IMG/VR virus record: IMGVR_UViG_3300021256_000065
Length of the DNA: 64,000 bases
Reading direction: 5' to 3' (one strand)
From: a virus
The notes beneath the pieces were generated by a model, which searched no databases, was not told the DNA's origin, and was given only the letters and a program-made list of their open reading frames with translations. The position numbers and the translations under genes are program-made. Shown piece by piece: positions 38,403 through 38,921 of the stretch (positions are counted from its first letter, which is position 1; every line of letters starts with the position of its first letter).

Positions 38403-38675
38403 ATGAATCTAAAAGTAAGATTTAAAAATCCAATATTTATTGCTCAATTTATTCTTGCAATTTTAACTCCAATTTTAGCTTATGCAGGTTTAACTCTGCA
38501 GGATCTTACTACATGGAATGCACTTGGAAAACTTTTAATTGATGCATTAAGAAATCCATATGTTCTTGGATTAATTGCTGTTTCTGTTTGGAATGCTTTG
38601 AATGATCCAACCACTGCAGGTGTTGCAGATAGCAAACTTGCGATGACGTATGATAAACCAAAAGGAAAATAGTAA
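38403..38675 (+). CDS. Holin (Phage_holin_4_1 / phi-LC3-type).
   Basis: MNLKVRFKNPIFIAQFILAILTPILAYAGLTLQDLTTWNALGKLL…NDPTTAGVADSKLAMTY carries the family DPTTxGxxDS signature. The ORF ends in TAG followed directly by TAA. Confidence 0.7.
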
Positions 38676-38921
38676 ATGGCTAAATATAATAAAAAATAGA
38701 CATTCCAATAGAAACAAAGAAATTTTAATAAGTCTCTAAATCAAAATCTTACAACTACTGCAAATTTAAGACTGCGGAAAGAAGCAGGTTTTGATAAAAC
38801 AGTTTTGACAATTATTCCAAAAGGAGAAACTATAAAAGTATTAAAAAAATCTGAAAATGGTTGGTATAAAGTTTTATATAATAACCAATTAGGTTTTTGT
38901 TTAAAAGATTGGTTGCAATAA
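38676..38921 (+). CDS. SH3b cell-wall-binding domain protein with 2 in-frame TAG and no catalytic domain.
   Basis: TANLRLRKEAGFDKTVLTIIPKGETIKVLKKSENGWYKVLYNNQLGFCLKDW is a typical bacterial SH3_3 domain. TAGs at codons 8 and 12. A strong intrinsic terminator follows. Confidence 0.5.

Follow-up and report, generated by a model that had tools for sequence, protein, structure and literature searches.

The wall-binding and catalytic parts of a phage lysin need not be carried by one polypeptide. In PlyC of streptococcal phage C1, the catalytic and wall-binding subunits come from separate adjacent genes of one operon and assemble; the binding subunit is not an SH3b domain. In endolysins such as CTP1L (PMC4777826) and that of phage phi2638A (PMC12203907), a free wall-binding domain is made from an internal start site of the endolysin gene, and two-polypeptide endolysins have been surveyed (PMC9430671). 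In the CTP1L/phi2638A type, one gene gives both the full-length enzyme and the short product, and the latter docks onto its identical counterpart in the former. Modular endolysins with a C-terminal SH3b domain are found in phages of Gram-positive bacteria, among them Psm of Clostridium perfringens phage phiSM101 (PDB 4KRT), with a GH25 and two SH3_3 domains, and the endolysins of the Butyrivibrio phages Arawn and Idris.

Here we analyze a phage locus in which a holin gene is followed by an open reading frame (ORF) for an SH3b domain. Like the genes for modular SH3b endolysins, the ORF lies directly after the holin, where sister phages encode a complete enzyme, but its product has no catalytic domain, and 52 of its 81 residues are the SH3 domain. 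That domain is homologous to the first SH3_3 of Psm (residues 217-283, E 2e-6) and to the C-terminal ends of Butyrivibrio phage endolysins (40% identity); the latter likeness hints that the host belongs to the rumen Lachnospiraceae. As with CTP1L and phi2638A, the wall-binding domain would be a separate small polypeptide beside a lytic enzyme. However, the gene in this phage has lost its catalytic part, and the endolysins of the relatives have no internal ATG at the equivalent position. PlyC and this phage both have binding and catalysis in separate genes, though here a distance of 40 kb separates the two, which are on opposite strands, and any assembly of their products would be hypothetical.

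Results

The window and its genome

The stretch of DNA analyzed (the window) is 64,000 nucleotides of IMG/VR record IMGVR_UViG_3300021256_000065, with a base composition of 31% GC. Structural genes occupy a minus-strand block (1-27976), and genes for replication and nucleic-acid metabolism a plus-strand block (28139-64000), which encodes Thg1, RNA ligase, RNase H, gyrase B/A-like proteins, NAD ligase, DnaB, a RecJ-like protein, PARG and a Pol III PHP protein. Kin contigs are of rumen metagenome origin and reach lengths of 133-148 kb. Loci taken from related contigs are labelled L followed by a number, and proteins on record in a large protein collection P followed by a number. When window positions 36000-42000 were searched as DNA against cultured and deposited phages, no relatives were found, the sole match being a mobile endonuclease-like stretch. 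Related contigs extended the genome rightward past the window by about 4 kb, comprising a DNA polymerase III alpha gene. A leftward extension by searching IMG/VR with the partial tail-fibre protein gave no match, as the tail fibre is variable. In all, the search for lysins covered about 95 kb of the approximately 134-kb genome, and the remainder may encode further ones.

The plus-strand block also encodes an 830-aa protein (30765-33257) with the "shoulder" domain of the major vault protein (PF11978, E 1e-22), which is kept in ENA relatives. The Thg1-like tRNA-His guanylyltransferase, the RNA ligase and the microbial PARG (29886-30713, 35395-36666 and 57309-58109, all plus strand) look like a possible tRNA/RNA repair or counter-defence set.

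The holin and the SH3b-only ORF

The holin and SH3b genes lie within the replication block. The features of the locus, all on the plus strand, are as follows.

38350-38379, plus strand: terminator-like hairpin with T-run just 5' of the holin ribosome-binding site (13 pairs, -14.5 kcal/mol, z = -2.8)
38403-38675, plus strand: holin gene, 89 aa, Phage_holin_1 (Pfam PF04531, PHROG holin families, synteny)
38676-38921, plus strand: 81-codon SH3b-only ORF; linker, codons 1-29, and SH3_3, codons 30-81 (nt 38763-38918)
38929-38976, plus strand: intrinsic terminator; hairpin 38929-38966 with a 17-bp stem, a loop of 4 and a T-run (-21 kcal/mol, z = -6.5)
38981-39009, plus strand: sigma-70-like promoter for RNase H (TTGAAA, 17 nt, TATAAT; 11/12 matches)
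39040-39555, plus strand: RNase H gene (PF00075, E 1.7e-29), immediately to the right of the SH3b ORF, as it is of the endolysin gene in syntenic relatives

The holin ORF (38403-38669) comprises 89 codons, followed by TAG (38670-38672) and then TAA (38673-38675), and is preceded by the ribosome-binding site AGGAGG. Its product matches PF04531 over the whole model (positions 1-82 of 82; E 1.3e-23, 83.7 bits against a cut-off of 22) as well as PHROG holin families. Its sequence reads as hydrophobic at about residues 9-29 and again at 50-66, and ends in the charged tail DKPKGK, and syntenic holins with 73-85% identity occur in about 60 IMG/VR contigs. As the holin ORF has no internal TAG, the protein should be producible whenever its mRNA exists.

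The SH3b ORF extends in the holin frame from ATG 38676 to TAA 38919-38921, with a weak Shine-Dalgarno sequence (AAGGA), and its product has no signal peptide. Two in-frame TAGs, at codon 8 (38697-38699) and codon 12 (38709-38711), fall in the linker. Residues 30-81 match SH3_3 (PF08239) from position 2 to the end of the 54-position model, with an E of 2.3e-13 and a score of 50.6 bits (cut-off 27); the SH3_3 domains in intact endolysins of relatives score lower, at 39-43 bits. No ATG, GTG or TTG 3' of the second TAG could yield the whole SH3 domain, and the only standard-code ORF within the SH3b ORF is one of 38 aa from TTG 38805. The PHROG match of the product is the C-terminal end of an amidase family, and neither Pfam nor PHROG reported a catalytic family in the 81 residues. 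By synteny and homology, the ORF stands directly downstream of the holin as an ortholog of the relatives' endolysins. Its product is not an endolysin by definition, as no peptidoglycan-hydrolase domain is present in the same polypeptide; wall binding is predicted from the domain.

A Pfam scan of the approximately 60 other window ORFs, with TAG read through, found no amidase, lysozyme or peptidase domain, and when 20 related endolysins were run by phmmer against the window in six frames, the SH3b ORF was the only match. For the gyrase genes and the tape-measure-like ORF of 3118 aa, coverage was by the phmmer lysin scan rather than by Pfam.

A preliminary description of this DNA had called the 81-codon ORF just an SH3b domain with two TAG codons, followed by a strong terminator and with no amidase, lysozyme or peptidase domain adjacent to it, and all of this agrees with our results. 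A catalytic domain fused in frame just outside the ORF, which it had named as a refutation, is absent, and the TAA directly upstream of the ATG bars any such extension. The holin needs a different family from the Phage_holin_4_1 given there, PF04531 being the only one reported at E <= 0.1. The spacing of 1 nt between holin and SH3b ORF is likewise amended: the ATG abuts the TAA, and is thus 0 nt from the TAA and 3 nt from the TAG. The holin does end in TAG-TAA as described, with its C-terminus differing under suppression by one extra residue only. A read-through fusion of the holin and the SH3b domain, which share a frame, was considered and is ruled out by the TAA between them; one variant has TAA-TAA.

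Signals and mobile elements around the pair

The hairpins at 38350-38379 and 38929-38966 bracket the holin/SH3b pair, with no clear promoter seen after the former. In relatives, the latter is kept 3' of the endolysin stop codon, and in the alignment its stem changes are paired (GGTAATT/AATTACC, GGGAGTT/AACTCCC and GGTGGTT/AACCACC). The RNase H promoter is also kept (TTGAAA or TTGCAA, then TATAAT) and marks the right-hand limit of the lysis unit. In many relatives (L005, L008, L020, L023, L024, L029, L038, L043 and L045), a GC-rich hairpin with a T-run lies between holin and endolysin, by which the two genes may be transcribed separately or attenuated in those phages.

Insertions are found nearby. 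A 716-nt stretch between RNase H and gyrB (39655-40370) is missing in L001 and L002, which are 97% identical to the window on both of its sides. It holds a 265-codon endonuclease-like ORF (39607-40404, plus strand) with three in-frame TAGs, and is probably a mobile homing endonuclease. Similar DNA occurs in many unrelated phages, e.g. in "intron-encoded protein B" of Staphylococcus phage Twort. The gyrB gene, uninterrupted in the window, is split in close relatives at the position of window 41913/41915 by an insertion of about 1.06 kb (L001 7020-8079; L085 12560-13810) with a 237-aa GIY-YIG ORF, which looks like an intron or homing element. Further along the replication block, a 305-codon ORF with eight in-frame TAGs (47955-48872, plus strand) begins with a hydrophobic segment, continues in a long region resembling a coiled coil and finishes with a GIY-YIG nuclease domain (E 1.8e-7).

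Endolysins at the same place in sister phages

A search of IMG/VR with the holin led to 80 loci being examined. In about 30 of them, an ORF of 470-800 aa directly follows a holin 73-85% identical to ours, and the last 67 or so residues of these proteins are homologous to the SH3b ORF (phmmer E 1e-16 to 3e-6). Their genes have 0-17 in-frame TAGs each. The Pfam architectures of these sister endolysins include the following.

GH25, CHAP, SH3_3
GH25, CHAP, PG_binding_1, CW_7, SH3_3
Glucosaminidase, Amidase_2, PG_binding_1, SH3_3
Glucosaminidase, Amidase_2, two PG_binding_1, SH3_3

The gene order in the relatives is holin, endolysin, RNase H, GyrB, and in the window the SH3b ORF occupies the slot of the endolysin. 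DNA homology between the window and the relatives ends at the end of the holin and restarts inside the SH3b-coding part; against L013 it restarts at window 38742, at 84% identity, and runs through the terminator, the promoter and RNase H. Codon for codon, the linker sequence KYNKK-TAG of the window lines up with the KYNEL-TAG in which the PG_binding_1 domain of L029 ends. Four relatives (L017-19 and L027) have no gene at all between holin and terminator.

Given this synteny and homology, the SH3b ORF is almost certainly the 3' remnant of a modular, holin-linked endolysin gene truncated from its 5' side. A deletion would have taken the catalytic and PG_binding parts and left an ATG abutting the holin stop, about 29 linker codons, the complete SH3b domain and the original terminator. 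On these comparisons the locus has three states, namely full endolysin, binding domain only and nothing, of which the window represents the intermediate. For the start ATG-GCT-AAA, we considered an in-frame deletion that kept the initial MAK of a GH25-type endolysin, but the upstream sequences do not align.

A catalytic lysin at the end of the tail-fibre operon

A separate catalytic lysin is encoded elsewhere in the same genome, beyond the left end of the window, where the following gene runs off.

3-1745, minus strand: tail-fibre protein with SASA domain, first 581 codons of 938 aa (P0003, 100% identity)

Window positions 1-11745 correspond to 11745-1 of locus L125 at 100% identity. On L125, 54 nt after the tail-fibre gene, lies an ORF for a 690-aa lysin with an Amidase_2 (residues 20-149) and a Glucosaminidase domain (201-358) and seven in-frame TAGs, which starts 1126 nt to the left of window position 1. 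The preliminary description had offered as one alternative that the catalytic endolysin is elsewhere, and this 690-aa protein bears it out. The search for amidase, CHAP or GH25 domains in the remaining genome that it had proposed found none within the window, and the Amidase_2-Glucosaminidase protein just outside. The lysin gene is the last of the tail-fibre operon and converges on a gene for a 674-aa baseplate-like protein; it is about 40 kb from the holin and on the opposite strand. Its C-terminal 300 or so residues matched nothing in Pfam or PHROG, so that SH3_3, PG_binding and CW_7 domains are all absent from them. SPOR-like repeats and an NlpC-like end were suspected in the lysin and dropped, having no Pfam support even at E <= 5. 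In the 133,873-bp contig IMGVR_UViG_3300021399_000007, the lysin (97% identical) is at about 100 kb and the SH3b-only ORF at 4.5 kb.

The 674-aa baseplate-like gene served as an anchor to read the syntenic site in 62 relatives. No lysin homologue was present within 8 kb of it in the five contigs with an intact holin-linked endolysin (L005, L023, L034, L037 and L042). This complementary distribution of the two lysins (five genomes against one or two) suggests that the late-operon lysin replaced the holin-linked endolysin, and from it we argue that the late lysin acts as an endolysin rather than merely as a virion enzyme. However, the PHROG matches of the 690-aa protein include a family of "tail protein with endopeptidase domain", and it could be a virion-associated hydrolase instead. 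At the late-lysin site, the contig of L005 has a 333-aa ORF (L141 10199-11200), tyrosine recombinase/integrase-like as judged by eye from its sequence.

The tail-fibre genes (window 1-8604 against L138 12556-15084) are wholly different from those of IMGVR_UViG_3300021399_000007, which is otherwise 96-97% identical, while the lysin next to the swapped genes is conserved between the two genomes. The pattern suggests the swap of a host-range cassette beside the lysin. About 10 kb to the left of the window, the same genome encodes another small protein of the SH3b kind (L125 21861-22433, on the minus strand of that locus), of 190 aa, with an SH3_3 domain (E 1.8e-9), a signal-peptide-like N-terminus and four in-frame TAGs. 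A C-terminal "3D" lytic domain was suspected in it and dropped, no family matching its C-terminal half even at Pfam E <= 5.

TAG as a sense codon

TAG is a sense codon in this genome. The 3118-codon tape-measure-like ORF (18061-27417, minus strand) has 85 in-frame TAGs and the 1681-codon tail protein (12710-17755) has 24, and reading TAG as sense merges broken window ORFs into long ones. In-frame TAGs are concentrated in structural and lysis genes, and replication genes mostly have none. We found no suppressor tRNA with anticodon CUA in the window or in 20 related loci, and no tRNA gene at all in the window.

Preferential stop-codon recoding in the late and lysis genes of phages has been described and proposed as a means of timing (bioRxiv 10.1101/2021.08.26.457843). 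The present clade is similar in that TAG is found in the endolysins, the late lysin (seven), the structural genes and the remnant (two), and also in homing-endonuclease-like ORFs within the replication block. It differs in that the lysis cassette is in the replication block and not with the structural genes, that no suppressor tRNA is encoded in the parts read, and that TAG aligns more often with Glu than with Gln. In the endolysins L003-L045, the residue aligned to an in-frame TAG is E in 31% of cases and Q in 12.5%, and in a family of 53 homologues of the 674-aa baseplate-like protein (L138-L199), at pair identities of at least 60%, E in 55% and Q in 9%. Among 154 de-duplicated nearest-neighbour TAG events, the counterpart was E in 54, Q in 31 and N in 15, with GAA (37), CAA (25), GAG (17) and CAG (6) as the neighbour codons. 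In controls, true E codons were aligned with Q in below 4% and true Q codons with E in 9%, and the TAG profile fits neither. From these alignments, the residue encoded by TAG in the clade may differ from the Gln assumed by code 15.

Persistence of the SH3b-only ORF

The SH3b-only junction recurs in IMG/VR and ENA, in 10 or more contigs that come from several rumen data sets. The 81-aa product is on record in the large protein collection (P0001; five contigs, up to 113 kb), as is an 84-aa variant with 89% identity to it (P0002; three contigs). Searching IMG/VR with the SH3b domain alone added nothing to the two contigs already known. In the 84-aa variant, the ATG junction, both TAGs and the stop are all kept, and it departs from the 81-aa form by 13 substitutions and by 9 nt inserted in frame within the linker. 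Neither SH3b-only lineage has a lost start, a frameshift or a premature stop other than TAG.

Across all copies, nine synonymous and seven non-synonymous events were counted, giving a dN/dS of 0.19 (16 events, two lineages); in the same pair, the holin has a value of 0.09 and RNase H one of 0.12. Under neutrality, so low a share of non-synonymous changes across the whole ORF has a P of 0.001-0.006 if all rates are equal, or of 0.018 if only transitions are allowed (16 events). Restricted to the SH3 domain, P rises to 0.07. At 31% GC, about 4-7% of random substitutions would make a TAA or TGA, and none was seen in the ORF. These counts are suggestive of an ORF still translated and constrained, and tip the balance slightly toward its continued function.

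Discussion

In this phage the lysis system is unlinked, with the holin in the replication-gene block and the lysin in the late block. Our overall account, to which we give a probability of roughly 0.55, is that the SH3b ORF is an endolysin remnant that is still gene-like, while peptidoglycan cleavage is carried out by the separate late-operon lysin. Translation of the SH3b ORF would stop after seven residues until TAG is read as sense, and the late lysin and structural genes would be blocked likewise. After the code switch, ribosomes ending the holin at its TAA would sit on the SH3b ATG and could restart by coupling, which is plausible because the Shine-Dalgarno sequence is weak. The SH3b product would then probably be made late, as a free wall-binding protein. 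As it has no signal peptide, it could reach the wall only through the holin lesions, along with the lysin. That it cooperates there with the late lysin is a guess, and one we would not press.

A remnant of the same origin might instead be dead, either not translated or inert, and too recent to have gathered disabling mutations. We consider this a serious competitor, though clearly the less probable of the two. The loss of the whole gene in L017-19 and L027 means that the locus is dispensable; the two TAGs and the weak Shine-Dalgarno sequence fall within a scrambled linker, the two known lineages have diverged little (13 substitutions and one indel), and the synonymous excess is not significant for the SH3 domain alone. 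However, over the whole ORF that excess is found with either substitution model (dN/dS 0.19, P 0.001-0.018), the one indel is in frame, start, TAGs and stop are kept in both lineages, the Pfam match is full-length and high-scoring, and no TAA or TGA has arisen where a few percent of random substitutions would create one. An ORF that exists only if TAG is read as sense could even be an artefact of assembly or gene calling, but the recurrence of the junction in at least 10 contigs of independent IMG/VR and ENA assemblies, and the plain use of TAG as a sense codon in this genome, make this scarcely conceivable.

If the SH3b protein is made, it could be the wall-targeting subunit of the 690-aa lysin. 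The two would then form a split endolysin, encoded by genes 40 kb from each other and assembled at lysis. The late lysin has no recognizable binding domain, its 300 or so C-terminal residues being unmatched; the lineage that carries it retained precisely that part of the old endolysin which binds the wall, and selection seems to act on it; both genes require TAG read-through, and would thus appear jointly only after the code switch; and free binding-domain subunits made from internal start sites are known, as cited above. Yet in the known cases the free domain either pairs with its own counterpart in the complete enzyme or comes from a gene of the same operon, whereas the late lysin lacks SH3_3 and is encoded 40 kb off on the other strand, and its 300-aa C-terminal region may itself bind the wall. 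We regard a split enzyme as unlikely. The preliminary description had raised a catalytic part split from its binding domain; this is true in the historical sense, by deletion, and a working two-part enzyme would be hypothetical. With no catalytic domain anywhere in the 64-kb window, a phage without an endolysin of its own, whose holin triggers host autolysins, was also considered; it was dropped, as highly improbable, after this genome was found to encode an amidase/glucosaminidase 1.1 kb beyond the window edge.

Returning to the account of a gene-like remnant and a separate late lysin, the SH3b ORF is best filed, by its homology, as a truncated derivative of an endolysin and not as a two-part endolysin. 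The holin/SH3b pair is a modest variant of the known modular evolution of endolysins. For annotation, a pair of a holin and an SH3b-only gene should not be taken for a new lysis system, and in this clade the lysin is placed at the end of the tail operon. The clade also poses a testable question, namely which amino acid is meant by TAG in these rumen phages, and illustrates that TAG recoding can silence lysis genes located in an early or middle block. The locus is probably an example from nature of an endolysin being replaced while its old wall-binding domain stayed behind and, if the free domain is truly selected, it would offer a simple system for what a lone binding domain does at lysis.
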